From assembly GCA_049614105.1 (NCBI GenBank), contig JBMZDF010000001.1:24338-88337 (forward strand): a DNA stretch of 64,000 bases. Direction: 5' to 3'. Positions 30,272 to 59,206 of this stretch are shown in pieces. This stretch comes from Candidatus Promineifilaceae bacterium. GTDB lineage: Bacteria; Chloroflexota; Anaerolineae; Promineifilales; Promineifilaceae. Every line of letters begins with the position of its first letter. Within the stretch, counting starts at the first letter, position 1. The position numbers were made by a program, and so were the translations under genes. The notes beneath the pieces were generated by a model, which made no database searches, was not told where the DNA came from, and saw only the letters and a list, made by a program, of their open reading frames with translations.

Positions 30272-30273
30272 TT

Positions 30274-31488
30274 ATGAGCACTCGTCGCAAGCTACTTATC
30301 TGGTTGTTTCTAAGCATCATCACGGCCATAGGGGCAACCGCGATTTATCGCCAGGTGCAGCCAACAACTGGCGAAGATGGTGCTTCGGCCGTGTCGGATG
30401 ACCCCACTGTTGCAGAAGAACAAGACACATCGGCGTTACGCTCTAACGTCGAACAAATTCAAGAGCAGCTACAGGATTGGGTTGTAGAAGTACGCGCTTT
30501 AGTTTTGTCAGAGGAGCCGATCGGCACAACCACAGAAGGCTCCCTTGTTATTTACAGCACGGCATTTGAAGAGTCGCTGATTAACTACATCACGGCATTC
30601 CGCACAAAGTACCCCGAAATCACGATCACCTATGAGTTGATGGAGATTGCTGAATTAACGGCCCGCGTAACGGCGGAGAGGGACGACCCATATGCGGATG
30701 TGCTTTGGGGTGTACCTGCTACAACTGTTCAATGGCTTGCGTGGCAGGATACGCTTGCCGCTTATGCTCCCTCGCATGTTCAAAAGCTGCCGCTCTCGTT
30801 TCGTGACAATCTGACCCCCCCAGAGTGGGTTGGATTCGCTGCGTGGATGAATGCTATTTGCGTCAACAAACAGATGTTGCAAGCGGCAGGGCTTCCCATT
30901 CCTAAAACATGGGCGGACTTAACTGACCCACAATATCAAGATATGATCTTGATGCCAAACCCTAAAGCGTCTCAAACGGGGTATTTGGCCTTACAAGCTT
31001 TCATAGATTTATATGGTGAAGTTGACGCTTGGGCGTTTATGGATTTGCTCGACAAAAATATTCGCGCCTATCCTGACTCAGCGACAGGGTCATGCAGGGC
31101 GGTGGGCGATGGTGACGTGCCGATTGCTATTTCATACGCATTTGTGGCCACAGAACAGGCTAAAGAAATAGAATCTGCTATTGCAGTCTTTCCCAGCGAG
31201 GGCACAGGATGGGAAATAGAAGCTGCGGGTCTCATTCGCAAGTTTCCTGTCAAGCCTGCCGCGATGACTTTGATGGACTTTATTATTAGCGAAGAGGCGA
31301 TGCACGAGTATGGTCAAAGCTTTGCTGTTACCGCCATCGAATTAGACTATTTACGAGTTCCAGTTGGGTATCCTGAGGAGCCTAGCGCCATTCTGGTTAA
31401 AAAGGATTTTACGTGGGCAAGTGCAAACAGTACCCGTTTGTTAGATGAGTGGCAGCAGCGCTATGAACGGTCGGCCCAAGAACCGTAA
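30274..31488 (+). CDS. Orphan ABC-type extracellular solute-binding protein (family-1, Fe3+/polyamine-like) with no permease or ATPase nearby
   Basis: It has an N-terminal anchor. LVIYSTAFEESLINYITAFRTKYPEITITYELMEIAELTARVTAERDDPYADVLWGVPATT has the SBP family-1 signature architecture. Confidence 0.65.
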   Translation: MSTRRKLLIWLFLSIITAIGATAIYRQVQPTTGEDGASAVSDDPTVAEEQDTSALRSNVEQIQEQLQDWVVEVRALVLSEEPIGTTTEGSLVIYSTAFEESLINYITAFRTKYPEITITYELMEIAELTARVTAERDDPYADVLWGVPATTVQWLAWQDTLAAYAPSHVQKLPLSFRDNLTPPEWVGFAAWMNAICVNKQMLQAAGLPIPKTWADLTDPQYQDMILMPNPKASQTGYLALQAFIDLYGEVDAWAFMDLLDKNIRAYPDSATGSCRAVGDGDVPIAISYAFVATEQAKEIESAIAVFPSEGTGWEIEAAGLIRKFPVKPAAMTLMDFIISEEAMHEYGQSFAVTAIELDYLRVPVGYPEEPSAILVKKDFTWASANSTRLLDEWQQRYERSAQEP

Positions 31489-31506
31489 GGATGGAGTAAC
31501 GAGGCA

Positions 31507-33756: not shown

Positions 33757-33789
33757 TACCAACCCAAATTGGCATCAACTTGATCCCTT

Positions 33790-34431
33790 ATGTTGCTACT
33801 GATAATTCCCACCCTTTTGCTCTTCTTTAGCATTGGTACGTTCACAACAATCCGCATGCGCCGTCAAAAACAGACTGGCGAAAAAATCATACCGCCACGC
33901 CTTAGCAAGCGCTCCGACAAGAAACGGCGCAAACTGCCGCAGTTGCTTGTTGCATGGTTTGAGGAGCGCGATAAGCACGGCGTTGGGGCATGGCTGCGCA
34001 AGCTACCCGCCAAAGAGCTAGCCTTGTTGACCAAAGATGTCACAGCTTATGCACACGATATGGGGTTTGATTTACTGTGGGTTGTGGACAAACAGATTGA
34101 TGATGTCGCCTTGCGCGAACAAATCAGCAACGCAGTTTACCAATATGTCTACTCATTTTATGCAGCAGTTGTTTCACGTGATGAGATGCAATTTTATATG
34201 TCGTTGACTGATTTTCTCAACAATCTCAACAGCCGTAAACATCGGGCGCAAATGCAGGCCGTCTTTAAACATTTAACTGACGATGGGGTTATTCCGTATT
34301 CGGCCGAACTTATATTCCAGCCCAAACACAAACGCCGCTATCAAATTGAGCAGTTGATCCTCAAAGCTTCCCAGACCAACCGTGAAGCCCTCAAGCAGGC
34401 ATTGCGTGCCACAAGTGTTACCCAGCAGTGA
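33790..34431 (+). CDS. Uncharacterised paralog family X, copy 2, with an N-terminal TM anchor
   Basis: The segment AWLRKLPAKELALLTKDVTAYAHDMGFDLLWVVDKQIDDVALREQI...RKHRAQMQAVFKHLTDDGVIP is colinear with the other copies. Confidence 0.6.
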   Translation: MLLLIIPTLLLFFSIGTFTTIRMRRQKQTGEKIIPPRLSKRSDKKRRKLPQLLVAWFEERDKHGVGAWLRKLPAKELALLTKDVTAYAHDMGFDLLWVVDKQIDDVALREQISNAVYQYVYSFYAAVVSRDEMQFYMSLTDFLNNLNSRKHRAQMQAVFKHLTDDGVIPYSAELIFQPKHKRRYQIEQLILKASQTNREALKQALRATSVTQQ

Positions 34432-34830
34432 TTTGTCCATATCTTGTGGTATTGTTGTCAATATAAAAGCCATGTTTTTTCGATATTAATCGTTTCAATG
34501 ATGGGAATCCATTGTTTCGATAATAGTAAAAAAAGGTGATTCAGTGATAATTATTGCTAGGAAGTATGTATATGATACTTTTCAGAAGCAGTGCTTAGTG
34601 TAGTTATAGAAAAATCAGGAAAAGCTGTAGCCCAATTTCCATAGTACCAATATCAATCTGAAGTAGCTTGGCGCAAGGTTCAGGCAAATTTTAGGTGCGT
34701 TGCAAGCAGAGTTAGATTAATTAATTTGTGGTTTCCTCAAAATTAGTTCAATCTGGGTTTGGTCTGCATTATTGTGACTTGTCTGGGAATCATTCCGCAA
34801 TCTTGAATAAAGGGGAATAGAATCAATACT

Positions 34831-43389: not shown

Positions 43390-44865
43390 TTAGGCTGTGG
43401 ATGGTTTAAGCGACTCGCGTAGCTGGGTTACATTTAGCTCTAAACGTTTGAAAAAATCTGTTTCGACAATCGCATCCAGCCGCTCTTTTTTCTGGTGATG
43501 ATTGATTTTGATATGCAAAGCGGCTACCTGTTCCTTCAAATCGGTTTCACGTTCCCACACCTTGCCAGACATTTCGTTGAATGCGTTGGCAAGTACAACC
43601 AGTTCATCAAATGAGTTGACCTGTATTTTGTCCGCTTTGTTATCGGCCGAAACCTGTTGAACACCTTGCAAAAGTTGGGCAATCGGCCGATGAATAAGCT
43701 GTGTTAAATAAATCGCCAGCGCAGATGCGAGAATCACCAAAAACAACGTCACAAATAAAACACGCATCCGCATTTGAATGGCTGGCGCAACCACCTCTTC
43801 ACGTGGAACCGTGATACCAAGCCGCCAGCCAGTTGCTTCAATCGGGGCATACACCAATAACGAAGTATCGTTGTTGGTATCGTTGTTGTAATAGCCAAGC
43901 CCTGTGACATCTGAAAGCATCGAATTGACAAGCTGACGAAATTCGGCCGAACCTGTCTCCTGCAACTTTATCGCCTCTTGCTCCCCTTTTGTTGCGTCAT
44001 TGTCTTGAAAATCGGGGTGCGCAATAATGCCGCCCGTATGATCGATCAGAAACCCATGCCCCGCGCCTTCGAGCACTTGGATATTGAGGGCGATCTCCTT
44101 GAGCGACCCAATCGTGACATCATGCGACATAATGCCCAAAAAATCGCCGCCGCTGCCGATCAACGGTTTTGAGGCGGTGACCATCCAGCCTGCCCCGGCA
44201 AAATCGACATAGGGGGCGGTCCATTGCAACGCATAAGATGGATTATTAGCTGGCTCCGCGACCGTATAAAAAACAATTTGGGTTGGGTCCCACGCATCAG
44301 GATAATGATCATTACTGGCCCAAGGATAAAGACGCATCATACCCTCTGGCGTCGTCATGTAGATCCACTGTGTATCTGGGCTGACACCCTTAATGCCTTC
44401 AAATATCGTGTCGAGCTGTTCCGTTTGGATGATCGTTTTGGCAACTGTGGCGTCCACATCGGCCGATGCCCAGTAAACATTTGAGAGCGTGTCACCCAAA
44501 CTGTCGGCCCCTCCGCTGCGATTATAGTAATCGTCTAGCCCTAGAATGCCGCGATTGTCTAGCTGATAACGCATTAGCTCAGTGGTCACTATCTCGTCAT
44601 CAATTGGCGTTTCTAACACTTCCACAGCCTGATGCGCGGCAATCTGTGTGGTGTTGGCGACCTCGTTCAAACGAATATTGATTTCTTCCGCACGGGCGGA
44701 CGCAAGCTGCAATAAGTTTGCTTCCATTTGAGCGGTCAATGCTCGCATACTTTGGCTTGTAAATAGAATCGAAACGATCAGAATGGGGATCACTGAAAAG
44801 GACAACAGCGCAATTAAAATCACACGAGTGAGGGAGCGTTTGAGCCAAGACAATATCGTATTCAT
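43390..44865 (-). CDS. Cache-like sensor and HAMP protein with no recognisable output domain
   Basis: The architecture is TM, an extracytoplasmic ~330-aa region, TM, HAMP (IHRPIAQLLQGVQQVSADN...FDELVVLANAFNEMSGKV) and a short coiled coil. Confidence 0.7.
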   Translation of the reverse strand: MNTILSWLKRSLTRVILIALLSFSVIPILIVSILFTSQSMRALTAQMEANLLQLASARAEEINIRLNEVANTTQIAAHQAVEVLETPIDDEIVTTELMRYQLDNRGILGLDDYYNRSGGADSLGDTLSNVYWASADVDATVAKTIIQTEQLDTIFEGIKGVSPDTQWIYMTTPEGMMRLYPWASNDHYPDAWDPTQIVFYTVAEPANNPSYALQWTAPYVDFAGAGWMVTASKPLIGSGGDFLGIMSHDVTIGSLKEIALNIQVLEGAGHGFLIDHTGGIIAHPDFQDNDATKGEQEAIKLQETGSAEFRQLVNSMLSDVTGLGYYNNDTNNDTSLLVYAPIEATGWRLGITVPREEVVAPAIQMRMRVLFVTLFLVILASALAIYLTQLIHRPIAQLLQGVQQVSADNKADKIQVNSFDELVVLANAFNEMSGKVWERETDLKEQVAALHIKINHHQKKERLDAIVETDFFKRLELNVTQLRESLKPSTA

Positions 44866-46527: not shown

Positions 46528-46806
46528 TTAGTTAAAGAAGGAGTCTAGCAACCCACCCGACGGGCGTTTCCTGGGCGTATTGCCCTTTGGTGAGATTTGA
46601 ACTGAATAACGCAGCTCGCTCTCATCATGCAAAATGAGTTTGGCGGAACGCACCATCTGGCTGAGCACTTGGTCGAGTTCTCTAAGCGGGATGCGTGTTC
46701 TACGGGCAATTTCGCGTTTTGTTTGAAATGGGCGTCGTACTAAACAGCGAATCACATCCTGTTCGGACGCAGAGACTTGTAGTAGATCGAGTGGGCTAAG
46801 CAACAT
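46528..46806 (-). CDS. Small winged-helix protein, paralog of the N-terminus of the 44876-46522 protein
   Basis: MLLSPLDLLQVSASEQDVIRCLVRRPFQTKREIARRTRIPLRELDQVLSQMV aligns with LSTLDLLNANPVEQDILRCVTRFPRLSVRAITERINLPSAEVAITIEELV. Confidence 0.6.
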   Translation of the reverse strand: MLLSPLDLLQVSASEQDVIRCLVRRPFQTKREIARRTRIPLRELDQVLSQMVRSAKLILHDESELRYSVQISPKGNTPRKRPSGGLLDSFFN

Positions 46807-46814: not shown

Positions 46815-48074
46815 TTATAGTTGTGAGCTGACTGGGGCATGTGCTTGTGAAAAAGGGGCGGGTTGTTTTTGATGTACCATGTTGATAATCAGGTTTGCGG
46901 CATGGTTGCATTCGCGCATGTCGGCGAAGTCGGCCGCCATGCGCTGTGCGTTTGTTTCTAACGTTTGATCGCTGGTTAATCGGCCGAAACTTTCCCGCAG
47001 CCGCGCTTCGGTCACATCCTCAACAGGCAGGCAAATAGCCACGCCAGTCTCCGCACAACGTTCAGCCACCAAAAAGTTCTCACTGGCCGTCACAATTTGC
47101 AACATCGGCAGCCCGTGGCTCAACGCAGCAAGCATCACGCTTGATGTCCCCGTTGCGATCACATAATCAGCCCGTGGGAAAATTAGTTGATGCGGAATAA
47201 AGCGGTCAACAAAAAAGTTGTCTGGTTGGGTTGCTGTGACTAAATCTGAATCGTTGGTTGAAACAATGACGCGTACAGGGCGATCGGCCAGAACGGATAC
47301 AAGGGTTTCCCAGAAATCAGGTATCCCCTCCCTCATGTGATTTTCTTGTTCAAATTGGCGCGACCAGCGATTATCGTGTTGTACAAAACAGATCGGCATG
47401 TCGGTATCAAGTGCCGCTGCCAGCGTGCGGTAAGCATTTTGGTCAACAGACGGATACCATGTGCAAGCACCGACCAGCCGTACTTTGGTTGGTAAGCGCA
47501 AGTGATTTGCCTGCAAGGCTGAAATTGAGCGCAGTAAGTATAAATCGCCTAAAAGCGGGAATTGGTCATAGTCGCCTTGATACGGCGTGTGGCCGCAAAT
47601 AGAGGCGATTTGGTTGGCGATGTGCATGACGGTCAGATAGCGTAAGCCGCTGTCGGTATGAACTTCATCAGGTGTACTGTTGGGCAGCGGCGCATTTTCG
47701 CAAGTCGGCCACATATACGTGCCTAAACCAAGTACTGCAACTGGAATGTGATGCCATTTGGCGAAAAGAATCGCTCCCAGCGCCATTGAGGAGGCGACGA
47801 TTGCATCTGGTTGAAATACGGCTGCTGCTTCACGAACAAGCGCCACTTGCAACACGTTCGGTTTGGTGCTGCCCCACAAACTGACCCGAAAAGCGACACG
47901 GCTCGGCTCGCTGCCGGTATTGACGCGAGGGCAATTTGCTTCGTCCAGTTCAGAATCAAACCCTGATCCCGTTACAAAGCCGACGGTGTGCCCTAATGCC
48001 TGAAGCGATTGGGCAACGCGAATGGCTGGATAGATATAACCGTGGCTGGCAAGTGGACAAAACAAAAAGCGCAT
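46815..48074 (-). CDS. GT-B fold glycosyltransferase (GT1/MGT-like)
   Basis: MRFLFCPLASHGYIYPAIRVAQSLQALGHTVGFVTG is typical of the GT1 N-terminus. The C-terminal donor-binding region reads ATGTSSVMLAALSHGLPMLQIV...AERCAETGVAI. An aaaggag RBS precedes the chosen start. Confidence 0.7.
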   Translation of the reverse strand: MRFLFCPLASHGYIYPAIRVAQSLQALGHTVGFVTGSGFDSELDEANCPRVNTGSEPSRVAFRVSLWGSTKPNVLQVALVREAAAVFQPDAIVASSMALGAILFAKWHHIPVAVLGLGTYMWPTCENAPLPNSTPDEVHTDSGLRYLTVMHIANQIASICGHTPYQGDYDQFPLLGDLYLLRSISALQANHLRLPTKVRLVGACTWYPSVDQNAYRTLAAALDTDMPICFVQHDNRWSRQFEQENHMREGIPDFWETLVSVLADRPVRVIVSTNDSDLVTATQPDNFFVDRFIPHQLIFPRADYVIATGTSSVMLAALSHGLPMLQIVTASENFLVAERCAETGVAICLPVEDVTEARLRESFGRLTSDQTLETNAQRMAADFADMRECNHAANLIINMVHQKQPAPFSQAHAPVSSQL

Positions 48075-48122: not shown

Positions 48123-51100
48123 TTACGCCGCGCGAACCAGCGGCAAAACGGTTAAGAGCGATGGTAGTTTGCTGGGTGCGATGTAGCGCACTAAGCCATA
48201 GCCAATCCCTGCTAAACCTTGTATCAACCCTGCCGCCTCAACTGCAAGCGGCAAGCCACATTGAATCGCATCTATGGTTAAGTTAGCGAGGTGTTGTGCG
48301 GCTAGTTGTTCAGTTGTGTGCTGTAGGATTGGGTCGGCTAATATTTCGGCCGATGTGTGCAAAAAATCGAGTGATCCAAATAGCCCATTTGCTAATGAAT
48401 GATCCCGTATTTCAGCATCCGAAACCTGTCGGATCGCTTGGTCAATTAAGTTGGAAGCCTGCACCGTTCTGTGTTCAGGCGGGAGCGACAGCCAACCGAG
48501 CGCATACCCGATCGCGCCATCATGCCAATTTGTCGCGGTTGGCATCGCTGGCACATGTTCAAGTAGTTGATTGGCCGCAATCGCAAAACGAGGCTGTCCC
48601 GCCCACTGTGCCACCCGATATAGCTCTGCCGCGATACCGATGAGTCCGCTTGCATAGCCTGTCCCCAAGCGCACATGGGTGGGCAACTGCCACGCCTCCA
48701 CGCAAGGCTGTAGCTGTTGCAGCAGCCGCTCCCCCGCTTGAACGGCGTAGGCCAATAAGTCCTCAGACGGGTCTATTTCGTTGAGACACCAGAGTGCGGG
48801 TATCAGACCTGCTGTGCCAGACAAAACGTTGAGATAGCCGTCTGAATCGATTTTATGCGAGCTGAGTGTTGCCCACGCATGCGCCTGTGACAAAAGCGCT
48901 GGATCGTCAAATTGTTGTCCAAGACGGGCGCAGGTTGTGATGTATCCCGCAATCCCGTCATATGCGCCCAACAGGGTCCCGTTGAGATGTGCCTCAATTG
49001 AACTCGTATTGGCAAGCGTGGCTTGCAGCGGGGCAATTGTTTTACGGGCTAGATTTTCCCAGCGGACATTGTTTGTGACGCGGGCAAGTGCGGCGAAAAA
49101 CAACGCGATCCCACAGCTACCGCTGTAAAGCGTCAGATTGTTTGGCCCAACATAGTGACGATGCCGATAGCTAGATACAGAAATCCATGCCAAGGAAGTT
49201 CCATCATCAACCGCTTGCGCTGCCAGCTTGTCGCCAATCGCACAGGCCAATTCAAGCGGTGACTGTGTTCGTTTTGACGGAGCAGGGGGCGTTAAACTAT
49301 TTTCGCGGGTTGAGCTACAGGCGAGCGTTGCCCGAATGTACCAAAGTTGTTCACGACAGCCACGATCGCTGATTGCGTCAACGCGAGCCATCGCTGCATC
49401 TAATCCGCTGCGATCTGTGACCTGAGAAAACCGTTTGCCGCTGCTTGCCCAAACGTCACGCGAGTCAGCTTGCGTGTAGAAGTACGGCACATCAAATGTG
49501 CGTAGCTCGCGCTTTTCATCGGCAATAAAGTTGGCATACTGCTCGCCTTGATTCACACGCCCCCATAATAGGTCGAGCGTGCGCTCTTGGGTTAAGCCAC
49601 GACGCAGTTGGTCGGGCTGTCGCAGTTGTCGCAACAACATGTCGTAAATCATTGTGTCGCGGAACAAGAATCGGATACGTGCGCCAGCAAAGGTTGAAAG
49701 TTGTTGACGTAAAGCGGCCTGATTATTTTGTGCAATGCGGTAGGCGGTGCGGAAGCCCTGTTCGATTTGGTCAATGTAGTCAGTTGGATCTGCTTGGGTT
49801 TGGTTGAATTTCGGCCGATTTTGCGCCTCATCCCCCGCCACAGATACCCAAATTTGTTCATAACGCATCTGGTCACTCTGTGCATCAAGTACCTTCAACC
49901 GCAGCGCCAGTTTTGTTGCATTCCCACCAAGCCCCCCATCCGCCGCATCATCAAACTGATTCGGCCGAATGTTTGGCAGCAACAACGTTGTGATCACTGA
50001 ACTATAGAAACGCGCATACGCCTGTTGTTCAGCCTCGCTCAAATCGTCTGTCTGGTCTGGAATATCAGGGTGAAATAAGCCCTCAAGATCGATCAGAATC
50101 GGATGTGCTCCGCTGGCAATCACGTTGTCGCTGTGGAAATCTGTGCCGCGTACCAAATATAAAATTGCAAGCAGTGCGCCTAACCGTTCATAGAACTGGG
50201 CGACCTCACCACTTGTTAAACAGCTTTCGTGGGTGACAAATTCGACCCAGCCATAGGCGGGACGCTCAACAATCGTGAGCAGCCGCAGCGGCGGCAGTTG
50301 TCCCTGTCCATGCTGATTAAACCAGTTGAGCAAAGTCTGAAATTGTGCATCAACCGTCAGCGGTTTGGGCTTGTAAAGAAGACGTGCGCCGTTGCTATCG
50401 TGCAGAATATAAACGGTGCGTCCGCTATCGTGTCGGTCGCTAACTGAGTCCTGAATCTGTTGAATAGCGGGCGCAGAGTCTGTGAAAAATGTTTTGGTCA
50501 AGGTTGACCAATCGGCCGCCAGCCGATCCAAAAATTCGACGCGAGCCGCTAGCCAATTTGTGGTGAAGTCATGCAGCAATCGGCCGAGCACAGGATACGC
50601 CTTTAACAGCGTCAACGCCCCCGCCGCACTGCGATACAGGTCTAAAAATGATTGAAAACGCGCTTGTGAGGTTTCCCCAGAGAGCTGTTTGAGAAAACGG
50701 GCTGACTGTAGTTCGGTTACAACAATCGGCGTCAAAATATCATCACAATCGTCAAGCAGGGCGGTCACCCATAGGGACAATGCTGTTTCAGGAAAAGCTG
50801 CTTGACCAAGGTGTGCCGCCGTTGTTGCGTAAGCGTCATACAGGTCATTTAGAATTGAATAGATGAGCGGGCGCACAATAACCAAGAGCGTCTCGTCAAG
50901 CCGTGCTTGTTGTGCGGTTGAGGTGAGAGAGGGCGTTTGACAGGTTGTATAGCGTTGTTTTAAGGCTGTCACCCAGTTTAGATTGGGGGTTCGTGTTTTG
51001 AGCTGGCCCAGCGGTTCACTGAGAATGCCAACGAATTGAGGTTCTGACAGGTTATCTTTTGCCAAACGTTGGGCGAAATCGGTCGATTGCGTAAATGTCC

Positions 51101-51239
51101 CCACTTTACGCCATTTGTTGTAACGAAAACGCCCCACGCCTGTGACGGGCTGAGTACTTAGCTGTTGTAATTCGGCCGAATTACAAGACGCAACCCGCTC
51201 ACTCAATGTCAACGCATCAAACCAAGCTTCATCCATCAT
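48123..51239 (-). CDS. lanM: Class II lanthipeptide synthetase (LanM): dehydratase domain plus a LanC-like domain with non-canonical active-site positions
   Basis: LLYKPKPLTVDAQFQTLLNWFN and HSDNVIASGAHPILIDLE belong to the LanM dehydratase. The C-terminal LanC-like repeats include GTAGLIPAL, GYASGLIGIA, NWHDGAIGYALGW, SLANGLFGSLDFL and GLIQGLAGIGYGLVRY. Confidence 0.85.
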   Translation of the reverse strand: MMDEAWFDALTLSERVASCNSAELQQLSTQPVTGVGRFRYNKWRKVGTFTQSTDFAQRLAKDNLSEPQFVGILSEPLGQLKTRTPNLNWVTALKQRYTTCQTPSLTSTAQQARLDETLLVIVRPLIYSILNDLYDAYATTAAHLGQAAFPETALSLWVTALLDDCDDILTPIVVTELQSARFLKQLSGETSQARFQSFLDLYRSAAGALTLLKAYPVLGRLLHDFTTNWLAARVEFLDRLAADWSTLTKTFFTDSAPAIQQIQDSVSDRHDSGRTVYILHDSNGARLLYKPKPLTVDAQFQTLLNWFNQHGQGQLPPLRLLTIVERPAYGWVEFVTHESCLTSGEVAQFYERLGALLAILYLVRGTDFHSDNVIASGAHPILIDLEGLFHPDIPDQTDDLSEAEQQAYARFYSSVITTLLLPNIRPNQFDDAADGGLGGNATKLALRLKVLDAQSDQMRYEQIWVSVAGDEAQNRPKFNQTQADPTDYIDQIEQGFRTAYRIAQNNQAALRQQLSTFAGARIRFLFRDTMIYDMLLRQLRQPDQLRRGLTQERTLDLLWGRVNQGEQYANFIADEKRELRTFDVPYFYTQADSRDVWASSGKRFSQVTDRSGLDAAMARVDAISDRGCREQLWYIRATLACSSTRENSLTPPAPSKRTQSPLELACAIGDKLAAQAVDDGTSLAWISVSSYRHRHYVGPNNLTLYSGSCGIALFFAALARVTNNVRWENLARKTIAPLQATLANTSSIEAHLNGTLLGAYDGIAGYITTCARLGQQFDDPALLSQAHAWATLSSHKIDSDGYLNVLSGTAGLIPALWCLNEIDPSEDLLAYAVQAGERLLQQLQPCVEAWQLPTHVRLGTGYASGLIGIAAELYRVAQWAGQPRFAIAANQLLEHVPAMPTATNWHDGAIGYALGWLSLPPEHRTVQASNLIDQAIRQVSDAEIRDHSLANGLFGSLDFLHTSAEILADPILQHTTEQLAAQHLANLTIDAIQCGLPLAVEAAGLIQGLAGIGYGLVRYIAPSKLPSLLTVLPLVRAA

Positions 51240-51331
51240 TCAACCACCCCGTAAACCTAACAATAAAAATAAACAATGGCCTACCTTGAGGGTAAGCCAT
51301 TGCCTGCAATTAGATTATTGCTACCAGGTTT

Positions 51332-51571
51332 TTACGCCTTTTCCTTCTTCGTGAAGGTGCAGCCTCTGGTGCAAATGCAGATGCCTCGACCGCCAGCAAT
51401 TTGCTCAAGCTCTTCATCAGACAATTCAGCCATGTTTGAAGGGGCGTCTGGAAGGCCTGCTTGCTGGTCTGAGGTCAATGAAGCGCGAAATTCTTCATCT
51501 TTCCATGCGCGAACGACGTCGTCTGAGGTCAAACCAATATCTTCTAGTGTGTGTTCAGTGTTGTTAGACAT
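51332..51571 (-). CDS. lanA: Lanthipeptide precursor (79 aa) with a mersacidin-type leader ending in GG and the 18-aa core RGICICTRGCTFTKKEKA
   Basis: An aggag RBS lies 6 nt upstream of ATG 51571. The leader ...DDVVRAWKDEEFRASL...ELSDEELEQIAGG resembles the mersacidin leader (IIRSWKDPFSR...). The core has 3 Cys and 3 Thr. Confidence 0.8.
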   Translation of the reverse strand: MSNNTEHTLEDIGLTSDDVVRAWKDEEFRASLTSDQQAGLPDAPSNMAELSDEELEQIAGGRGICICTRGCTFTKKEKA

Positions 51572-51672
51572 TCTTAACTCCTGTAGAGGTAGTAGCTCAA
51601 CCAACCGATTTTGGCCGAGTAAATGATGTGAAAGAAGGACATACAGCCGTTAGGGTTGTGCGTCTGCACGCA

Positions 51673-51951
51673 TTACTCAAGAAAAATAATGCGTTTGTCC
51701 AATAGCAGATGATGCCACCAGCCATCTTCCGACGGAATGGTGTCACTTTGCCAGTCAGCTTCAACGCCAAAAACACCAAAGCGATCCCCATGTCCGTCTG
51801 TCTTTTCAGCAATAAATCGTTGGGCGGTTTCTACATTTTGAAAAACGCAACCACCCAGATAATCATCGCTGCGGCCAACTTTTAACAGGGGTCTTCCCCA
51901 TACTTCGGCTTGTGCTTTGTATACATTTCTAGGACCAACTGTATAGAGCAT
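51673..51951 (-). CDS. Hypothetical 92-aa protein at the head of the lan operon
   Basis: A ggaga RBS precedes the start. I see no recognisable domain. Confidence 0.5.
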   Translation of the reverse strand: MLYTVGPRNVYKAQAEVWGRPLLKVGRSDDYLGGCVFQNVETAQRFIAEKTDGHGDRFGVFGVEADWQSDTIPSEDGWWHHLLLDKRIIFLE

Positions 51952-52237: not shown

Positions 52238-53317
52238 TTGGCACAGACTCTACTTATGTCTTTGGAATCATATTTAAACGTTCAACTAGCAACCTATCGT
52301 GACAAACCGCAGCCAACCGTCTTTATAAACCAAGCCTCGATTCAGGTTTGGCGTGAGTATGCGTCTGTTGCGGAGCGACTGGGGGCGTATGTTGTTTTGG
52401 CGCAACATTTGTTGCAATTACAGTTTCCAGTTGAGATGGGCATACAGCAGACCCCTGCTTATCAAGCGGCCATCCGTCGCGGCATTCGGCCGAAATCCAA
52501 CCACGCACTACAGCTAAACGCTCCCCAAGCGGTGCATCTTTCTTTGCATGAAGGCGTGGGGGGAACCGTGCCGCTGATTCACGTGCCGCAACGGGCGGAC
52601 TTTCTAAAAGTGGCGGCAGCGCTGGCGTTTCGCAACGAACCGCAAACGTTTAGTGCCGCCATTGGGGCGTTTTTGGTGAATGGGTACAGCAATTGGGATC
52701 GGATAGAGCGCAAACAGGTTGAATGGGTGCGTACACGGAATTCGGCCGAATGGGGCCATTTATTTCAACAGCTATTGGCCGATCGAGCAAGCTATCAAGA
52801 CAGCTTCATGATTATCACAAAGCAGCCATACAGCGGCGTAGACAGTCACGTTGCGGGAATGTCGCCGCAGCGATGGCTGGCCCGGTCCCACACAATCCGC
52901 GTGGCCCATGAGTCGGCCCACCTATTTACAAAACGAGCCTACGGGCAGCTTAATCACCATCTACTAGATGAATTAGTCGCTGATTATTGCGGGTTGGTTA
53001 CCGCATTTGGAACCTATGATGCGTCGTTAGCTCTCCGTTTGCTTGGTATCGACACGACACAGCGCCCCACAGGCCGCGTATCGCACTACCTGCCTCCCAT
53101 GCTGCGAGAGGATGAAATCTATCGCCAGCTTGCAACAATCGTGACACGGGCCGCACATACCTTGCAGGCGTTCACCTGCTGGGTTTGCCCCGATCCAACC
53201 TCTATTTCAGCGATGCGGCTGTTGCTGCACACAATTTCACAAGCATCACTGCAATCTCTTGCCTGCACAAACGCGCTGGCCGCGCTTCAGGCTTGCTATC
53301 AAAGGAGTAGAAAATGA
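52238..53317 (+). CDS. Hypothetical protein with an HExxH...E motif, a possible zincin-like metallopeptidase
   Basis: The motif is VAHESAHLFTKRAYGQLNHHLLDE. It is the first gene of the exporter operon and its ATGA overlaps the next gene. Confidence 0.4.
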   Translation: MAQTLLMSLESYLNVQLATYRDKPQPTVFINQASIQVWREYASVAERLGAYVVLAQHLLQLQFPVEMGIQQTPAYQAAIRRGIRPKSNHALQLNAPQAVHLSLHEGVGGTVPLIHVPQRADFLKVAAALAFRNEPQTFSAAIGAFLVNGYSNWDRIERKQVEWVRTRNSAEWGHLFQQLLADRASYQDSFMIITKQPYSGVDSHVAGMSPQRWLARSHTIRVAHESAHLFTKRAYGQLNHHLLDELVADYCGLVTAFGTYDASLALRLLGIDTTQRPTGRVSHYLPPMLREDEIYRQLATIVTRAAHTLQAFTCWVCPDPTSISAMRLLLHTISQASLQSLACTNALAALQACYQRSRK

Positions 53318-54078
53318 GTTCTTCCATTTTTCGCAAGGTCTCAATTGACCGACTGTCATCGCCTGAGCAGCTTGATATGCTGTTAGAGGTGGTTAATCCG
53401 CGTAGCTGGCTTGTTTTTGTTGCACTGGTTGTTGTGTTGATCGGTGGGCTGGCGTTCGGTGCGTTTGTTCGCGTGCCGACCACTATTTCGGCCGAAGGCG
53501 TCCTGCTCAATCATGGGAGCCTTGTGCCAATCGATGCACCTGCCAGCGGCTATGTCAGCAACCTATCAATTGACGAGGGCGACGTCATCGCCGTTGGTCA
53601 GCAGCTTGCCATGCTGGAAACAGAAGCAGGGCCGCGACCGCTGTTTAGTATGCAGGATGGCCGTGTTATTCAACTGCTCATTGCGCGTGGGAACACGATT
53701 GAGGTTGACGATCTGCTGCTTGTTCTAGAGCCGCTCGACGAAACGATTCTCCCCTCCGTGCTGGCGCTCTTGCCTGCGGATCAGGCGGACGAAGTAACGG
53801 CCGATACCCTTGTTGACGTGTCAATTGCAAACCAGTCAATCGTTGGGCAAGTTCGCACAGTGAGCCAGTTACCGATCAATGCGGCGGCACTCACGCGCCT
53901 TGTGGGCAGCGATAACGTGGTTGATCAGCTAGCAACGATGACCGACCATGTTTTAGTGGATATTGCATTAGCCAACACACACGATACCAACATACCGTCT
54001 GGCGTGATTGCTGATGTTGATTTTCGCATCGCAGAACAACAAATTTGGCGTTATGTTGTGCAGCAAGGAGGAGAATAA
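53314..54078 (+). CDS. HlyD-family adaptor of an NHLM-type bacteriocin secretion system
   Basis: MSSSIFRKVSIDRLSSPEQLDMLLEVVNPRSWL, a TM segment and a lipoyl-like segment (GYVSNLSIDEGDVIAVGQQLAML) follow the pattern I recall for the NHLM bacteriocin secretion protein. Confidence 0.7.
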   Translation: MSSSIFRKVSIDRLSSPEQLDMLLEVVNPRSWLVFVALVVVLIGGLAFGAFVRVPTTISAEGVLLNHGSLVPIDAPASGYVSNLSIDEGDVIAVGQQLAMLETEAGPRPLFSMQDGRVIQLLIARGNTIEVDDLLLVLEPLDETILPSVLALLPADQADEVTADTLVDVSIANQSIVGQVRTVSQLPINAAALTRLVGSDNVVDQLATMTDHVLVDIALANTHDTNIPSGVIADVDFRIAEQQIWRYVVQQGGE

Positions 54079-56291
54079 TGAGGCTATTTCGACGCATTCG
54101 CCGAACGCCAACGGTGCTCCAAATGGAAGCTGTCGAGTGTGGCGCAGCGGCGCTTGGCATTATTTTGGCCCATCATGGCAGCTATATCTCCCTCGAAGAA
54201 CTGCGCAATGATTGTGGTGTCAGCCGCGATGGGAGTAAGGCCAGCAATATTGTGCGTGCTGCCCGTCGTTTTGGTTTTGAAACACGCGGTTTTCGTGCTG
54301 AGCCAGCGCAACTATGGGATCTGCCTATGCCAGCCATTATTCACTGGAATTTCAATCATTTTTTGGTGCTTGAGGGGCATGATGACGATACCGTTTATCT
54401 GAATGACCCTGCGTTTGGTTCGCGCAAAGTGACGATGCAGGAATTGGACATGGCGTTTACGGGGGTTGTTATTACGTTCGAGCCGACTGATGCGTATCGG
54501 CCGATGGGCAAAAAACCAACCCTCGTTAGCACACTTCGCAAGCATCTTGTTGGCACTGAAAAAGCGATTGGCTACGTTGTTTTAGTCAGCCTTGCGCTTT
54601 TGGTGCTAGGGATGTTGGTTCCCACATTTTCAAGCTTTTTTATCGATCAAATCGTCGTTGCCAACAAAGTTGCTTGGACCAGACCGCTGTTAGGCATCAT
54701 GCTGTTGTTTGCCATGGCAACCGCTGCGCTTGTGTGGTTACGCCGCACCCATTTGATGCGGCTTGAAGCACGTCTCTCAATTGCCAACTCCAGCCGCTTT
54801 TTCTGGCACATTCTACAGCTCCCAATCACATTTTTTAATCAGCGCAGTGCTGGCGACATCAATGCCCGCATCGGTCAAAATGATCATGTCGCTACGTTAA
54901 TCTCCAATGATTTGGCGGCAACCTGTATTAATCTGCTGCTGATTGGGCTGTATGCGCTCTTGATGTGGCAATACAGCATCCTCCTAACGTTGATCACCAT
55001 AGTTGCCGCGCTAGTCAATTTTGTGACGCTGCGCGTGATGTCGCAGCGGCGCATGCAGCACAGCCAGCGGATGGTTCAAGAACAGGGCAAACTGCTGGGC
55101 ACAACGTTTGGCACGCTCCAGCAAATCGAAACGGTTAAAGCGGGCGGTGGCGAAAACGACGCCTTCGCCAAGTGGGCAGGGTATCACGCCAAACTGGTCA
55201 ACGTGACGCAGGAAATTGCGTTGAGCAGCAGCATTCTGAACGTTGTCCCTGCGATGTTGCAGCAAATCACATTAATGCTGATTTTGGGCATTGGCGGGTG
55301 GCTGATTATGCAGAATCAGATGACGCTTGGGTTTCTGCTAGCGTTTCAGATTTTAGCCAATCGCTTTTTGCATCCCGTTCGTGAGCTGATGGGTTTTGGG
55401 GCAAAGCTCCAAGAAACGGAAGGTATTTTGAACCGTATGTCAGATGTTCTCAACTATGCACCTGAGGTAAATATTGTGCTTACATCGGCCGAACCAGAGA
55501 ACGTTGAAGATCTGCCACCATTGGTTGGCGGGCTTGAAATACGCGATCTGACGTTTGGGTACAGCCGACTAGACCCGCCGCTGATTAAAGGGTTCTCGCT
55601 CACGTTAAAACCTGGCAAGCGTATCGCGCTTGTGGGCAGCAGCGGCAGTGGAAAATCAACCATTGCGCGACTAATTGCGGGTCTTTACACACCTTGGGAA
55701 GGCTCGATCCTTTTTGATGGGGTGGAACGTGCAGCATTTCCTGCCGTGATGCTCAGTAACGCCGTGCGATTTGTCGATCAGGAGATATTTCTGTTTGCCG
55801 ACTCGATCCAAAACAACATTACGTTGTGGAATGATGAGATTGCACAGAAACAAGTGGTCCAAGCCGCACAAGATGCGGTGATTCACTCTGAGATTTTGCG
55901 GCGAGAGAATCAGTATCAATTTATGTTGACGGAGGGCGGGGCAAATCTAAGCGGTGGACAGCGGCAGCGAATTGAGATCGCACGTGCGCTTGTGAGCAAT
56001 CCGCGCTTGCTGATTATGGACGAGGCGACGAGTGCGCTCGACCCGATTACAGAGCTAGCGATTGCCGATAATCTGCGACGCCGTGGGTGTACCTGTCTGA
56101 TTGTGGCGCACCGTTTGAGCACAATTCGTGATTGCGATGAAATTATTGTGTTGGACAAAGGGCGTGTGGTTGAGCGCGGGACACATGCCGATCTGTGGCG
56201 TGCAAATGGCGTTTATGCACGTCTATTGCAAAGTGATGGGGTGGAATCAGAGCACCTCATGGAGTCGCTTTGGAAAAAGGTGACGGGATGA
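54078..56291 (+). CDS. C39-peptidase ABC exporter (NHLM-type peptidase/ATP-binding subunit)
   Basis: MRLFRRIRRTPTVLQMEAVECGAAAL, NHFLVLEG and LNDPAFG form the C39 triad context. The NBD has Walker A GSSGSGKST, signature LSGGQRQR and Walker B LIMDEATSALD. An aaggaggag RBS precedes the start. Confidence 0.85.
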   Translation: MRLFRRIRRTPTVLQMEAVECGAAALGIILAHHGSYISLEELRNDCGVSRDGSKASNIVRAARRFGFETRGFRAEPAQLWDLPMPAIIHWNFNHFLVLEGHDDDTVYLNDPAFGSRKVTMQELDMAFTGVVITFEPTDAYRPMGKKPTLVSTLRKHLVGTEKAIGYVVLVSLALLVLGMLVPTFSSFFIDQIVVANKVAWTRPLLGIMLLFAMATAALVWLRRTHLMRLEARLSIANSSRFFWHILQLPITFFNQRSAGDINARIGQNDHVATLISNDLAATCINLLLIGLYALLMWQYSILLTLITIVAALVNFVTLRVMSQRRMQHSQRMVQEQGKLLGTTFGTLQQIETVKAGGGENDAFAKWAGYHAKLVNVTQEIALSSSILNVVPAMLQQITLMLILGIGGWLIMQNQMTLGFLLAFQILANRFLHPVRELMGFGAKLQETEGILNRMSDVLNYAPEVNIVLTSAEPENVEDLPPLVGGLEIRDLTFGYSRLDPPLIKGFSLTLKPGKRIALVGSSGSGKSTIARLIAGLYTPWEGSILFDGVERAAFPAVMLSNAVRFVDQEIFLFADSIQNNITLWNDEIAQKQVVQAAQDAVIHSEILRRENQYQFMLTEGGANLSGGQRQRIEIARALVSNPRLLIMDEATSALDPITELAIADNLRRRGCTCLIVAHRLSTIRDCDEIIVLDKGRVVERGTHADLWRANGVYARLLQSDGVESEHLMESLWKKVTG

Positions 56292-59206
56292 GTGAAAAGC
56301 AAACAACGTCGTCAGTTGCCGAAATGCTGTTGCTGCATTTGCGTTACAAAGAGGTTGCGGGGCTTGTCAATCAGGGAGGAACAGAATGGTTGTTAGATGA
56401 TCCGAGCCGTGCGTTTATTCTTTATGATGGTTCGGCCGATCTGTTTGCCGTCCCGTTGCAGGCGGGACGTATTGTGGGGGCGCGAACACATCTCATGCAT
56501 TTGGAAGCGGGCGACATTGCGCTCGGTTGTGGAACGTTGGGGGAGACGCTTGGCTATCTACTCGTCAGCGGGCATCGCACAAAGGTGATGCAAATCGGCC
56601 GAAATCGACTCGACAAAATCGCCAACAACGAAGGGTTTCAAACTGAGATTGCCACCATGCTCAATCGCTGGATTGTGAACCTGACCCACGCGGTCGTCAC
56701 CGATCTGCCCCCCAAAGAAAGTATCAAATTAGCCGCCAATCATGCGCTGCCGCTGAAAAAAGGAACAAGCGCCAGCGTCCAGCGTGGCGTTCTCTGGATC
56801 AAGCACGAACAGGGCAAATCTCAGTTTGGCAATTTGGAACACATGCCTCATCTAAACGGGGTGGGGCGCTGGCCGCTTGGCGAGCGTCATTGGATTCGGG
56901 CTTTAGAAAATGGCCAGCTATCGAGCATCGACACAAACAAATGGCTTGAGAAGGGAGCTGATTGGGCTGACGTTGACCAGTTTCATCAGTTTATTTCAGG
57001 GGTGCTTGAAAAGTGGCTGTTAGATTCGGCCGAAACACAAGCCCGCCAGCTTGCCGCACAGGTCACCGCCAGCCAGCAAGCGATCAATCAGGGACTGCGC
57101 CAGCTTGCACAGCCGTTGCTGCCAAGTCAAGAGACGCCGCAACGCCAATACACCAAACGCGAAGCGCTACAGGCAACGTATCAGCTTGTTGCAGACACCA
57201 TTGATGCTGACATTGTGATGCCAGCCAGCAAATCTTGGTGGAGTTCAACCGCAAAAATTGCGGCGGCCTCACAGCTACAGGCGCGTCGTGTGGCGCTCAA
57301 AGGGGAATGGTGGCGTGAAGATCACGGCGCACTGATTGGCATTGTTGGAGAAAGCGAGGATGAAGTTGCACTGCTTCCGACTCGCCGAGGCTACAAACAA
57401 ATCAACCTGTTTACAGGCAGTGAGCAGGTTGTTGATGAGGCGGTTGCGACCGCGATGTGGCCCGTTGCCGACATGCTTTATCGTGGTTTAGCGGATCGGC
57501 CGCTCACGGCATGGGACCTGTTGCGTTTTGGCATGAAATCGACAAAACGGGATGTGGTCAAGATTTTCGCGCTAGGCATCGCCATTGGGCTGTCCGGGCT
57601 TGCGCTGCCGCTGGCAACCGCGTTTATGGTTGATACGATTATTCCCATTGGACAGCCTCAACTGCTTGTGTCGATGATGTTACTGCTGCTGCTTGTCATT
57701 GGCGCGTCCGCTAGTTTTCAGTTCGTTCAGGATTTGTTCGTGCTGCGATTACAGATGCGGTTAAGTCGTGATCTCCAAACGGCAATTTGGATGCGTGTGT
57801 TGAATCTGCCCGTTTCATTTTTCAAACGGTACACGGCGGGTGAACTAGGCAAACGTGTTTTGGGCGTGCAAATGATTCAGCAGGTTGTATCTGGCATCTT
57901 GCCAATGATGTTGATTGCCGTCTTTTTCGCGCTTTTCAACTTTGGGTTACTGCTGTACTTTGATATACGGTTGGCCGCCGTTGCGATGCTGCTTGTGTTA
58001 TTCTCCAGCAGCGTTTCATTCACCATTGGTCTGCGTCAGCTTTCTGCGCGTCGTCAGGTCGCGCATAGTGAGGGGGAATTGTCGGGGCAAGTGTTACAGT
58101 CGTTGGAAGGAATCGCGAAGTTGCGCGTTTTTTCGGCCGAAGGGCGTGCATTCGCCAACTGGGCACAACAGTTTGGGGCGCTCAAACAGCTAGAACTCTC
58201 TATCGAATCTAAAAACAATCAGCTAAGCGTCTTTAACGCCGCCTTTGGCATCGTCACTAATGTCGCATTATTTGCAATGGTCGTGGGGCTGGGACAAGGC
58301 AACATGACGGTCGGCCAGTTTTTGGCATTCAACGCGGCGTTTATTCAATTTCTGTTTGGGATGTTGACGTTGAGCGATGGCGCGATTGAGATTTTAGACA
58401 GCATCCCACTTTATGAACGACTTCGGCCGATAATCGAACAACAGCCAGAGCTAACCCAAGACAATCTCTCGCCGGGCAAGCTAGCAGGCATGATTAGCTT
58501 GCAAGATGTTCAATTTAAGTATCACGATGACGGCCCGCTTATTTTGCAACAGCTCTCATTGACCGTTCAGCCGGGCGAGTTTGTTGCGGTTGTTGGCCCA
58601 TCTGGATCTGGAAAATCAACGTTGTTGCGCTTGCTGCTTGGTTTTGAAGCGCCCAGCGTGGGCGCGATTTATTTTGACGGCAATGATGCCGCAATGCTGA
58701 ACTGGCGTGAAGTGCGGGCGCAGATAGGAACGGTGTTGCAGGATGGGCAAATATTGCCTGAGAGCATTTTTCAAAACATTGTCGGTGTCGCATCTAGTTT
58801 GACACATGATGATGCATGGGCCGCGTTAAAGATGGCGGGTTTAGAACGGGACGTTCGTGCGATGCCAATGGATCTTAGCACCGTGCTGACGCAAGGCGGG
58901 GGAACGCTTTCAGGTGGGCAGCGGCAGCGGTTGCTGATTGCACGGGCGCTGGTTCGCCGCCCGCGCATCATTCTTCTGGACGAAGCAACAAGCGCCCTCG
59001 ACAACAAGACACAAGCCGAGGTCATGAAAAGCGTTGAGGCACTGCAATCAACGCGCATCGTCATCGCACATCGTCTGAGCACCATCCGCAACGCCGATCG
59101 CATCATCGTGATGGATCATGGGAAAGTGGTCCAAGAAGGCACTTATCAACAGCTATTGCGGGAAGATGGTTTATTTGCTGAGCTGGCCAAACGCCAGCTT
59201 GCATGA
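56288..59206 (+). CDS. ABC exporter subunit with an N-terminal cNMP-binding-like domain (NHLM-type ATP-binding subunit)
   Basis: An N-terminal ~150-aa beta-roll-like region (FILYDGSADLFAV...GDIALG) precedes the TMD and NBD (GPSGSGKST, LSGGQRQR, ILLDEATSALD). Its ATGA overlaps the upstream gene. Confidence 0.8.
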   Translation: MSEKQTTSSVAEMLLLHLRYKEVAGLVNQGGTEWLLDDPSRAFILYDGSADLFAVPLQAGRIVGARTHLMHLEAGDIALGCGTLGETLGYLLVSGHRTKVMQIGRNRLDKIANNEGFQTEIATMLNRWIVNLTHAVVTDLPPKESIKLAANHALPLKKGTSASVQRGVLWIKHEQGKSQFGNLEHMPHLNGVGRWPLGERHWIRALENGQLSSIDTNKWLEKGADWADVDQFHQFISGVLEKWLLDSAETQARQLAAQVTASQQAINQGLRQLAQPLLPSQETPQRQYTKREALQATYQLVADTIDADIVMPASKSWWSSTAKIAAASQLQARRVALKGEWWREDHGALIGIVGESEDEVALLPTRRGYKQINLFTGSEQVVDEAVATAMWPVADMLYRGLADRPLTAWDLLRFGMKSTKRDVVKIFALGIAIGLSGLALPLATAFMVDTIIPIGQPQLLVSMMLLLLLVIGASASFQFVQDLFVLRLQMRLSRDLQTAIWMRVLNLPVSFFKRYTAGELGKRVLGVQMIQQVVSGILPMMLIAVFFALFNFGLLLYFDIRLAAVAMLLVLFSSSVSFTIGLRQLSARRQVAHSEGELSGQVLQSLEGIAKLRVFSAEGRAFANWAQQFGALKQLELSIESKNNQLSVFNAAFGIVTNVALFAMVVGLGQGNMTVGQFLAFNAAFIQFLFGMLTLSDGAIEILDSIPLYERLRPIIEQQPELTQDNLSPGKLAGMISLQDVQFKYHDDGPLILQQLSLTVQPGEFVAVVGPSGSGKSTLLRLLLGFEAPSVGAIYFDGNDAAMLNWREVRAQIGTVLQDGQILPESIFQNIVGVASSLTHDDAWAALKMAGLERDVRAMPMDLSTVLTQGGGTLSGGQRQRLLIARALVRRPRIILLDEATSALDNKTQAEVMKSVEALQSTRIVIAHRLSTIRNADRIIVMDHGKVVQEGTYQQLLREDGLFAELAKRQLA

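Follow-up and report, generated by a model that had tools for sequence, protein, structure and literature searches.

The zinc site of the LanM synthetase and its active-site histidine are regarded as necessary for class II lanthipeptide chemistry. In the cinnamycin group the cysteine residues lie at positions 1, 5 and 14, and the synthetases KyaM and CinM are canonical zinc enzymes. Within that group (cinnamycin, duramycin and kyamicin) Thr11 and Thr18 donate nested thioether bridges, and it is KyaM or CinM itself that forms the lanthionine bridges (PMC6974636). By far most of the known bridges link a cysteine to a serine or threonine that precedes it (PMC11251773), and the histidine of the LanC active site (NisC His212, CylM His835) has been described as protonating the enolate (PMC9934072). 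The mersacidin subgroup is defined by the core motif TxTxEC (PMC7268733). Here we describe a cluster in 64,000 nucleotides of Candidatus Promineifilaceae DNA (contig JBMZDF010000001.1, positions 24,338 to 88,337; this whole stretch is the window, to which coordinates refer unless a locus is named) that we regard as a new form of class II lanthipeptide biosynthesis. The LanM enzymes of its clade have lost the histidine, and most of them also the zinc ligands, yet their substrates keep three cysteines, with threonine or serine partners that lie mostly downstream. What most needs explaining in the system is that the clade keeps three cysteines although its catalytic apparatus has gone.

The precursor gene, lanA, is an ATG-started open reading frame (ORF) of 79 codons at 51332-51571 on the minus strand, and its translation is MSNNTEHTLEDIGLTSDDVVRAWKDEEFRASLTSDQQAGLPDAPSNMAELSDEELEQIAGG followed by RGICICTRGCTFTKKEKA. 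Its elements, and the synthetase gene that follows it, are:

51389..51571, minus strand: leader peptide, residues 1-61, with a RAWKDE box and the double-Gly end ELSDEELEQIAGG (translation, TIGR03898 and a leader hidden Markov model, HMM)
51335..51388, minus strand: core peptide RGICICTRGCTFTKKEKA, residues 62-79 (translation; stop codon at 51332-51334)
51578..51582, minus strand: Shine-Dalgarno sequence AGGAG, 6 nt 5' of the lanA ATG (sequence reading)
51271..51305, minus strand: 15-bp hairpin and then a T-run, between the stop codon of lanA and the start of lanM (consensus scan)
48123..51239, minus strand: LanM-type synthetase of 1038 aa (TIGR03897), with a DUF4135 dehydratase domain at 49473-50597 and a LanC-like domain at 48153-49145

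This ORF is a real gene for a lanthipeptide-type precursor. The leader matches the NCBIfam model TIGR03898 (mersacidin/lichenicidin family type 2 lantibiotic) with E = 4.3e-18 and 65 bits against a cutoff of 23.5; the Nif11 leader model gives 17.4 bits, under its cutoff of 32.3. An identical 79-aa protein from a Candidatus Promineifilaceae metagenome-assembled genome (Chloroflexota) is present in NCBI, annotated as a mersacidin/lichenicidin family type 2 lantibiotic. A six-frame search of the full 64 kb with the leader HMM found no second precursor: lanA gave E = 2.7e-30 and the runner-up 0.14. The leader ends in a double-Gly site (...EQIAGG/R), and the cognate C39 exporter, with its catalytic Cys and His in place, is encoded in the cluster. 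An earlier account made from the letters alone, which we call the sequence-only reading, had proposed a single short precursor with a mersacidin-type leader and a double-Gly site matched to a C39 exporter, and it is borne out on each of these points. For the hairpin and T-run 3' of lanA we infer a terminator- or attenuator-like function.

In common with the mersacidin/lichenicidin precursors (TIGR03898) the window precursor has the RAWKDE box, an ELxxxxGG leader end, an adjoining LanM and a C39 exporter, and it shares with mersacidin the tetrapeptide CTFT, which in mersacidin stands at the start of the core. Unlike the mersacidin subgroup, the window has neither the TxTxEC lipid II motif nor a C-terminal Cys, the core ending CTFTKKEKA with no Cys after the Glu, and it has no LanD for the formation of aminovinyl-methylcysteine; neither a LanD nor any flavoprotein was found among the Pfam matches of the cluster ORFs. 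It departs from the mersacidin/lichenicidin family as a whole in that its Cys residues mostly precede its Thr residues, its LanM is without the catalytic His and the zinc ligands, and its exporter is of the two-subunit NHLP type accompanied by a DUF7005 protein.

The synthetase is readily recognized as a LanM, scoring 680.7 bits with TIGR03897 against a cutoff of 304, and its two domains match PF13575 (E = 2.5e-103) and PF05147 (LANC_like, E = 2.4e-34). Its closest match in the PDB is LicM2 (PDB 6ST5), aligned over the full length with E = 2e-89. On alignment with LicM2 and CylM the dehydratase motifs YKPKP, DFHSDN, IDLE and RFLFRDT are all present, the last carrying the elimination Arg and Thr. 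The LanC-like domain was compared with that of LicM2 and about 100 LanM homologues, some 90 of which carry G(F)SHG, WCHGAPG and SLCHG. In the window LanM GFSHG has become GYASG (SHG to ASG), SLCHG has become SLANG (LCHG to LANG), and the WCHG loop is deleted, leaving NWHDGAIG in which NW.D is fused to GA.G. The enzyme is therefore without the enolate-protonating His and without all three zinc ligands, which in LanM enzymes are Cys/Cys/His or Cys/Cys/Cys. The cyclase had already been called ligand-less from the sequence; to this we add the loss of the catalytic His. The domain itself is full-length and no more than mildly relaxed, the ratio of C-domain to N-domain identity being 0.78-0.99 compared with 1.10 +/- 0.12 in canonical pairs.

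Zinc-less LanC folds have been described in other settings. CcaM, the 'LanMbC' of the dehydrazoles (carnazolamide), likewise has DUF4135 fused to a retained LanC-fold domain lacking zinc ligands; unlike the window enzyme it has a YcaO partner, needs azole cores, is leader-independent and is ringless (PMC10676384). The window has instead a classical leader and belongs with Cys-rich cores, and no YcaO (PF02624) was found among the ORFs of the cluster and the rest of the window. Its loss of ligands looks independent of that in CcaM, because the LanC-like domain aligns full-length with LicM2 and the nearest relatives are canonical class II enzymes. Class III LanKC enzymes such as ThurKC also have a LanC fold with the three zinc ligands replaced and act on Cys-containing substrates (PMC10604976), but use separate lyase and Ser/Thr-kinase domains rather than DUF4135, together with SxxSxxxC labionin motifs and other leaders. 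The 'cyanotins' pair a LanM-like protein lacking the Cys/Cys/His ligands with a double-Gly leader and an NHLP/Nif11-type exporter (PMC7268733, PMC11356792); theirs is a Nif11 leader, with a Cys-free core in the described case, whereas the window has a mersacidin-type leader and three conserved Cys.

The arrangement around lanA recurs. A cassette of protein X, LanA, LanM and a GT1-like (glycosyltransferase family 1) protein, together with DUF7005, HlyD and two ABC exporter subunits (ABC1 and ABC2), is present in five loci: the window, L001, L006/L007, L092/L093 and L094. The remaining cassette genes of the window are:

51673..51951, minus strand: protein X, 92 aa, directly 5' of lanA in all five cassettes and 57% identical to the L001 copy
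46815..48074, minus strand: GT1 (GT-B) glycosyltransferase-like protein, 419 aa from its ATG (EryCIII-like_C, E = 6.7e-15), in all five cassettes
52238..53317, plus strand: DUF7005 protein (PF22541, E = 4.5e-88), first gene of the export operon
53314..54078, plus strand: short HlyD-like membrane-fusion protein of 254 aa (100.7 bits with TIGR03794, under its cutoff of 156)
54045..56291, plus strand: NHLP-type bacteriocin ABC exporter with C39 peptidase domain (TIGR03796, 1008.4 bits against a cutoff of 853.3)
56270..59206, plus strand: second subunit of the NHLP-type ABC exporter (TIGR03797, 819.8 bits against a cutoff of 709.4)

The four sibling cassettes come from metagenomic loci reached by protein-level searches (L092/L093 is NCBI GCA_011525915.1), and L001 encodes four precursors. 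When 103 LanMs were placed in a neighbour-joining tree, the five from the cassettes fell together as one small clade. The catalytic His is missing from all five; the zinc ligands are all missing in the window, L001 and L006 enzymes, and are kept in those of L092 and L094 (WCHG/WCDG, SLCHG). The clade LanMs are 30-37% identical across the five loci and synteny is preserved, so that the shared losses imply long-term purifying selection. The L092 and L094 enzymes have their zinc ligands and work on the same core motif, which suggests that the ancestral chemistry was cyclisation. No relatives were found on scanning 185,579 species genomes with LanM and with a GT alignment, nor on scanning metagenomes with protein X, for which 5.8 billion proteins yielded only nine relatives. 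The cassette is thus rare, only the protein-level searches having reached its siblings, and a literature search found no description of it.

We examined the leader relatives P0003-P0009 as further siblings and rejected them, since their LanM is canonical (SHG, WCHG, CHG) and there is no GT or protein X on their contigs of 5-7 kb. These loci (L002-L005) hold a related leader subgroup with paired precursors ending GSCCWSSCN, the CC-W-SSC-N tail of which is strikingly conserved.

In the window core, of 18 residues, Cys occupies positions 4, 6 and 10 and Thr positions 7, 11 and 13; Ser is absent and the net charge is +4. On translation this agrees with the composition given by the sequence-only reading. 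The placing of Cys mostly before Thr, which that reading had singled out, is seen in the window core and is kept in its relatives. As background we used 106 cores of the same leader family having at least two Cys, and eight related cores were tested. Every Cys could be matched to an upstream Ser or Thr in 83 of the 106, while two or more unmatched Cys, as in the window core, occur in 6%. There is no Ser or Thr ahead of the first Cys in seven of the eight related cores, compared with 15% of the leader family at large, and reverse pairing, of each Cys with a downstream Ser or Thr, is complete in all eight. In the window core, L001-A3 and P0126 the number of Ser/Thr equals that of Cys (3:3). Because the related cores share it, the odd polarity is a trait of the family and not the accident of a single ORF. 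The earlier suggestion of an atypical topology is reasonable to this extent, an atypical Cys fate being its alternative; the Cys may be present as thioether, disulfide, free thiol or glycosyl-Cys.

The precedent offered for reverse polarity, the Cys1-Thr2 ring of mersacidin, is apt in that the mersacidin core starts CTFT (PMC10006061), but it does not stand alone. The nested mixed-polarity pattern of the cinnamycin/duramycin/kyamicin group is the closer precedent. Both have short cores (18 aa in the window, 19 aa in the cinnamycin group) with three Cys, and the nested, mixed-polarity bridging of that group, in which a Thr lies C-terminal to the Cys that it pairs with, is what we predict for the window. 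The cores have no sequence similarity, however, and leader type and exporter differ. The window also has no gene for LanN (lysinoalanine) or CinX, although the sibling L006 has an Asp/Asn beta-hydroxylase gene like that for CinX.

Homologous cores, which the sequence-only reading had suggested looking for, make up a set of ten when the window is included:

Window: RGICICTRGCTFTKKEKA
L092: RLQDDDCTCTQGCTGTKGFTAF
L001 A1: ADWCVGTCKQTCNKESSFTKE
L001 A2: VEDDCTKNSCTRTCKRSSEFTKE
L001 A3: RDVCVGTCNQTCNKGSKFE
L001 A4: LEDSCQQGSCTDTCNKKSKMS
L006: EDKCNGTCTNTCGGVKTEAGAQQ
L094: GWTCIGSCGNTQIR
P0125 (orphan short contig, whole-library profile search): RKGICFSKTCRDVTCTGTTNVSPAEN
P0126 (orphan short contig, whole-library profile search): LADGGCKCGCWGGTVTWTDPN

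The P0125 and P0126 contigs are shorter than 1.2 kb and carry no informative gene context. Three is the exact number of Cys in nine of the ten cores, and the alignment columns that hold them are nearly invariant; the window and L092 cores have the motif CxCTxGCTxTK in common. Within the window core the residues pair as C4-T13, C6-T11 and T7-C10, mirror-symmetric about Arg8-Gly9, with Ile5 facing Phe12. Complete mirror pairing arises in 1.3% of shuffles of the window core (p = 0.013). It is complete also in L092 (p = 0.08), P0126 (p = 0.009), and A2, A4 and P0125 (p = 0.17-0.23), and so in 6/9 of the three-Cys cores. The inner two pairs trade Cys and Thr between core types, (T,C)/(C,T) in one and (C,T)/(T,C) in the other ('CT' and 'TC' dipeptides), an exchange that resembles covariation. 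Together the 3:3 count of Cys and Thr and the mirror pairing would lend indirect support to the presence of lanthionine in the product.

We tentatively favour a pathway in which three methyllanthionines (MeLan) form independently of zinc, as a nested hairpin of mixed polarity like that of cinnamycin. Its chemistry is predicted from the gene content, motifs, synteny and family conservation described above. The kinase-like domain of the divergent synthetase (LanM*) would bind the mersacidin-type leader, phosphorylate Thr7, Thr11 and Thr13 and eliminate phosphate to give three dehydrobutyrines (Dhb); we propose this dehydration because the catalytic motifs are intact. Each of the three Cys would then be joined to one of the three Dhb, and of the resulting three MeLan at least two would have the reverse, Cys-before-Dhb polarity. 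The favoured ladder is a nested beta-hairpin with C4-Abu13, C6-Abu11 and Abu7-C10 (Abu being the half of the bridge that derives from Thr) around the Arg8-Gly9 turn. Ring closure would be zinc-independent, since the LanC-like domain has no acid His and no zinc site. That domain might serve as a scaffold or as a catalyst of non-canonical type, on the pattern of class III, where cyclase domains without the same zinc ligands still form (methyl)lanthionine (PMC10604976), aided here by pre-organisation of the substrate hairpin. The GT1-like protein and protein X would act on the peptide or on the immunity of the producer. The C39 ABC exporter would cut after Gly-Gly and export a short cationic (+4) cross-linked peptide, with the HExxH protein of family DUF7005 as a general accessory of the exporter and possibly a trimming protease.

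Protein X is the most conserved component of the cassette, with copies also in L092 and L094. Its AlphaFold2 model is confident (predicted local distance difference test score, pLDDT, 93.5), and comparison of the fold with the PDB gave no match (best E = 2.3), nor does the protein belong to a Pfam or NCBIfam family. Distant relatives occur in unrelated contexts, for example in L008 with an HTH_3 gene. The GT1-like protein is 40% identical to the L001 copy and is closest among solved structures to CalG1, YjiC and OleD (E down to 4e-15). Canonical GT1 enzymes, which use NDP-sugars, have a catalytic His in the N-terminal motif GHxxP and a C-terminal donor motif HGG...(D/E)Q. In the window the His of GHxxP is replaced by Tyr (GY(I/V)YP) and that of HGG by Thr. 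Both changes are kept in the five loci, and its chemistry may therefore not be ordinary glycosyl transfer.

A more elaborate proposal, which we consider unlikely, would make the system a distinct class II-derived subclass of RiPPs (peptides made on the ribosome and modified after translation). The LanM lacking His and zinc would yield three nested mixed-polarity MeLan on the pre-organised hairpin, with ring formation or stereocontrol by way of protein X and/or the His-less GT-B protein, and the latter would glycosylate a non-hydroxyl site or have a non-glycosyl role.

A number of observations weigh against the ring-forming pathway. Three rings would mean that all three acceptors in the window core are Dhb. 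LctM mutants in the zinc ligands dehydrate their substrate and cyclise it poorly (Paul et al. 2007, as reported in PMC11356792). The characterised zinc-less LanM-type enzyme, CcaM, forms no rings, its cyclase-like domain being retained solely because it is required for dehydration (PMC10676384). The zinc-less LanM-like enzymes of cyanobacteria pair with Cys-free cores (PMC11356792, PMC7268733). Three rings would also leave the GT1-like protein no Ser, Thr or Cys to act upon in the window, A3 and P0126 cores, and replacement of both its His positions extends to all five cassettes. Lastly, A1, A3 and L006 have two of the three pairs mirrored and the third off by 1-2 residues, which is not significant, and the shuffle test was devised post hoc, after the pattern had been noticed, on sequences that are related. 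Mirror pairing is for these last reasons a lead and not a proof.

LanM* might instead be a dehydratase only, making Dhb and no lanthionines, with the LanC-like domain as a structural or substrate-binding module. GT1 enzymes are able to make S-glycosides, and in the glycocins the logic of one disulfide plus one modified Cys fits an odd number of Cys. The cysteines here might remain as thiols, form one disulfide with one Cys free or modified, or be S-glycosylated by the GT1-like enzyme, and the product would be a linear or loosely cross-linked dehydro- or glyco-peptide. We regard this as a serious rival, if on balance a doubtful one. Loss of the catalytic His and of every zinc ligand speaks for it, as does the odd count of three Cys, and a conserved GT needs an acceptor, for which Cys or Thr alone is plausible in the window core; non-enzymatic addition of thiols to Dhb is moreover very slow (PMC9934072). 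Yet known zinc-less LanM systems (the 'cyanotins') tend to Cys-free cores, whereas this clade conserves three Cys. A dehydratase alone would also leave the 1:1 stoichiometry of Cys and Ser/Thr and the mirror pairing without explanation, the sister LanMs of L092 and L094 retain zinc ligands on the same core motif, and the GT that is to modify Cys is without its canonical catalytic His.

The glycocin S-glycosyltransferases (SunS and GccA) are GT2 enzymes of the GT-A fold, and their peptides are helix-loop-helix structures with two nested disulfides. NAI-112 belongs to class III and cacaoidin to class V. With the glycocins (sublancin and glycocin F), NAI-112 and cacaoidin the window shares a RiPP precursor clustered with a GT-like gene, and S-glycosylation is possible in principle. 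Unlike the glycocins, the window has a divergent GT1-like (GT-B) protein without the canonical His, and a core with three Cys in 18 aa. A literature search for a glycosylated class II lanthipeptide found no example.

The three rings of the favoured pathway might instead be sequential or overlapping, for example C4-Abu7, C6-Abu11 and C10-Abu13, which would be reverse i to i+3 rings resembling mirrored rings D and E of nisin. The spacing from Cys(i) to Ser/Thr(i+3/i+4) fits all the Cys of L001 A1-A4 and L006. In the window it leaves out C6 and in L092 C9, two of the three Cys fitting in each, and in P0126 no Cys fits. The nested alternative is complete in six of the nine three-Cys cores, and we hold the sequential topology to be quite improbable.

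A canonical LanC or LanM whose gene lies beyond the 64 kb might also make the rings in trans, with the local LanM* dehydrating only. Cyanobacterial and Chloroflexota genomes often have several LanM genes with distant precursors (PMC7268733). Among the large ORFs of the window, though, LanM* is the only one to be LanC-like, and the loss of ligands in three independent loci has left the cassette intact, which argues for a self-sufficient system; there is little to commend a ring-former elsewhere. That the cluster is decaying, with a dead enzyme and a short core as remnant, is highly improbable: four catalytic residues lost from the LanC-like domain, unusual GT substitutions and a lone precursor might suggest it, but no ORF is disrupted, the dehydratase has kept its motifs, the precursor shares a conserved motif with that of L092, and the same losses are found in a clade of five loci whose LanMs, at 30-37% identity, keep their synteny.

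We return to the export side of the favoured pathway. The genes for DUF7005, HlyD and the two ABC subunits are transcribed divergently from the X-lanA-lanM side. The C39 domain (E = 4.9e-36) is active-looking, having the catalytic Cys in ECGAAAL and the His in NHFLVL. The HlyD protein is similarly short in L006, L092 and L094.

The HExxH...E motif of DUF7005 (H224, E225, H228 and E245) is invariant in 42 sequences, and the protein is a putative gluzincin-type metallopeptidase. In a metagenome scan 177 relatives were found, and the neighbourhoods of the best 80 loci (L012-L091) were inspected. Among these best 80 of the 177 the neighbours are ABC2 in 41, ABC1 in 26 and HlyD in 24, that is, NHLP/Nif11-type exporters; a LanM stands beside DUF7005 in three, all of them canonical CCG types, and GT or protein X in none. 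The idea that DUF7005 stands in as a zinc cyclase was rejected, since the protein goes with NHLP-type exporters, has a LanM neighbour in 3 of the best 80 loci and never has GT or X. It is a general exporter accessory and perhaps a trimming protease; leader removal in the lichenicidin family proceeds in two steps (PMC10006061). More broadly, RiPP export systems of this kind seem to have in it a widespread accessory that is as yet uncharacterised. Profile and sequence searches of the PDB with DUF7005 gave nothing credible, and a literature search nothing specific.

The cluster is bordered by genes for sensing, signalling and regulation:

46528..46806, minus strand: winged helix-turn-helix (HTH)-like protein, 92 aa (weak HTH_9 match), orthologous to genes of 90-91 aa in L092 and L094
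44876..46522, minus strand: cyclic-nucleotide-binding / ParA-like protein, 548 aa (cNMP_binding, E = 5.4e-9; weak TIGR03896 match)
43390..44865, minus strand: Cache-HAMP sensor protein, 491 aa (Pfam), syntenic in L092
42543..43349, minus strand: ParA/CbiA-like P-loop ATPase, 268 aa (Pfam), syntenic in L006, L092 and L094
59255..59905, minus strand: LuxR-type response regulator (Pfam)

The 548-aa protein is of a type associated with bacteriocin transport and is syntenic in L092 and L094. The LuxR-type protein is a probable regulator of the cluster. Several sibling loci share the cyclic-nucleotide-binding, Cache, ParA and response-regulator genes with the window, and genes for a histidine kinase and two response regulators flank the cassette in L092 and L094. 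A Cache-HAMP adenylate/guanylate cyclase elsewhere in the window could feed the cyclic-nucleotide-binding protein.

The siblings have further genes of their own. L006 (804-1583, 9995-10156, 13153-16315) has the CinX-like Asp/Asn beta-hydroxylase, an acetyltransferase, a sulfotransferase and a degenerate ORF comprising only a leader. In L094 (7721-8836, 10001-13160) there is a zinc-dependent alcohol dehydrogenase, which might be LanJA-like, and the LanM is split into ORFs of 906 aa and 135 aa. L092 (6497-8769, 14441-16402) encodes two short-chain dehydrogenases/reductases, a PNP_UDP_1 protein and an S9 peptidase.

Elsewhere in the window a second, divergent C39-peptidase ABC exporter is encoded at 13429-16167 on the minus strand, with a partner ABC protein at 16671-18845 on the plus strand, both scoring far under the NHLM cutoffs, and no precursor with a GG leader was found nearby. 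Five tandem paralogous ORFs of 75-78 aa at 6310-8071 on the plus strand are excisionase/HTH-like, with the pattern MEHxQ...RLISLxEAA..YG...GRLxAQKxGxxWxTTPxxVExxIxSRxKxGxYRxDI, and the one that was checked has no NCBIfam match. Signalling and STAND-type proteins occupy 230-6021, 23562-25406 and 27084-37503, among them a 1433-aa protein with a clostripain-like C11 domain adjoining an FHA protein, BTAD-AAA and NB-ARC ATPases, pentapeptide-repeat proteins, and the Cache-HAMP adenylate/guanylate cyclase named above.

If thioethers form in this system, it would provide a natural class II case of metal-independent ring formation with reverse polarity, and the core would be an 18-residue model for how far the substrate encodes lanthionine regiochemistry. 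If they do not, Cys would have a fate new to LanM pathways, in which the divergent GT-B protein might take part. The sister locus L092 offers a natural control, having the same core motif with the zinc ligands intact. A small cationic stapled hairpin, if that is the product, would be of interest as a scaffold for antimicrobial peptides.

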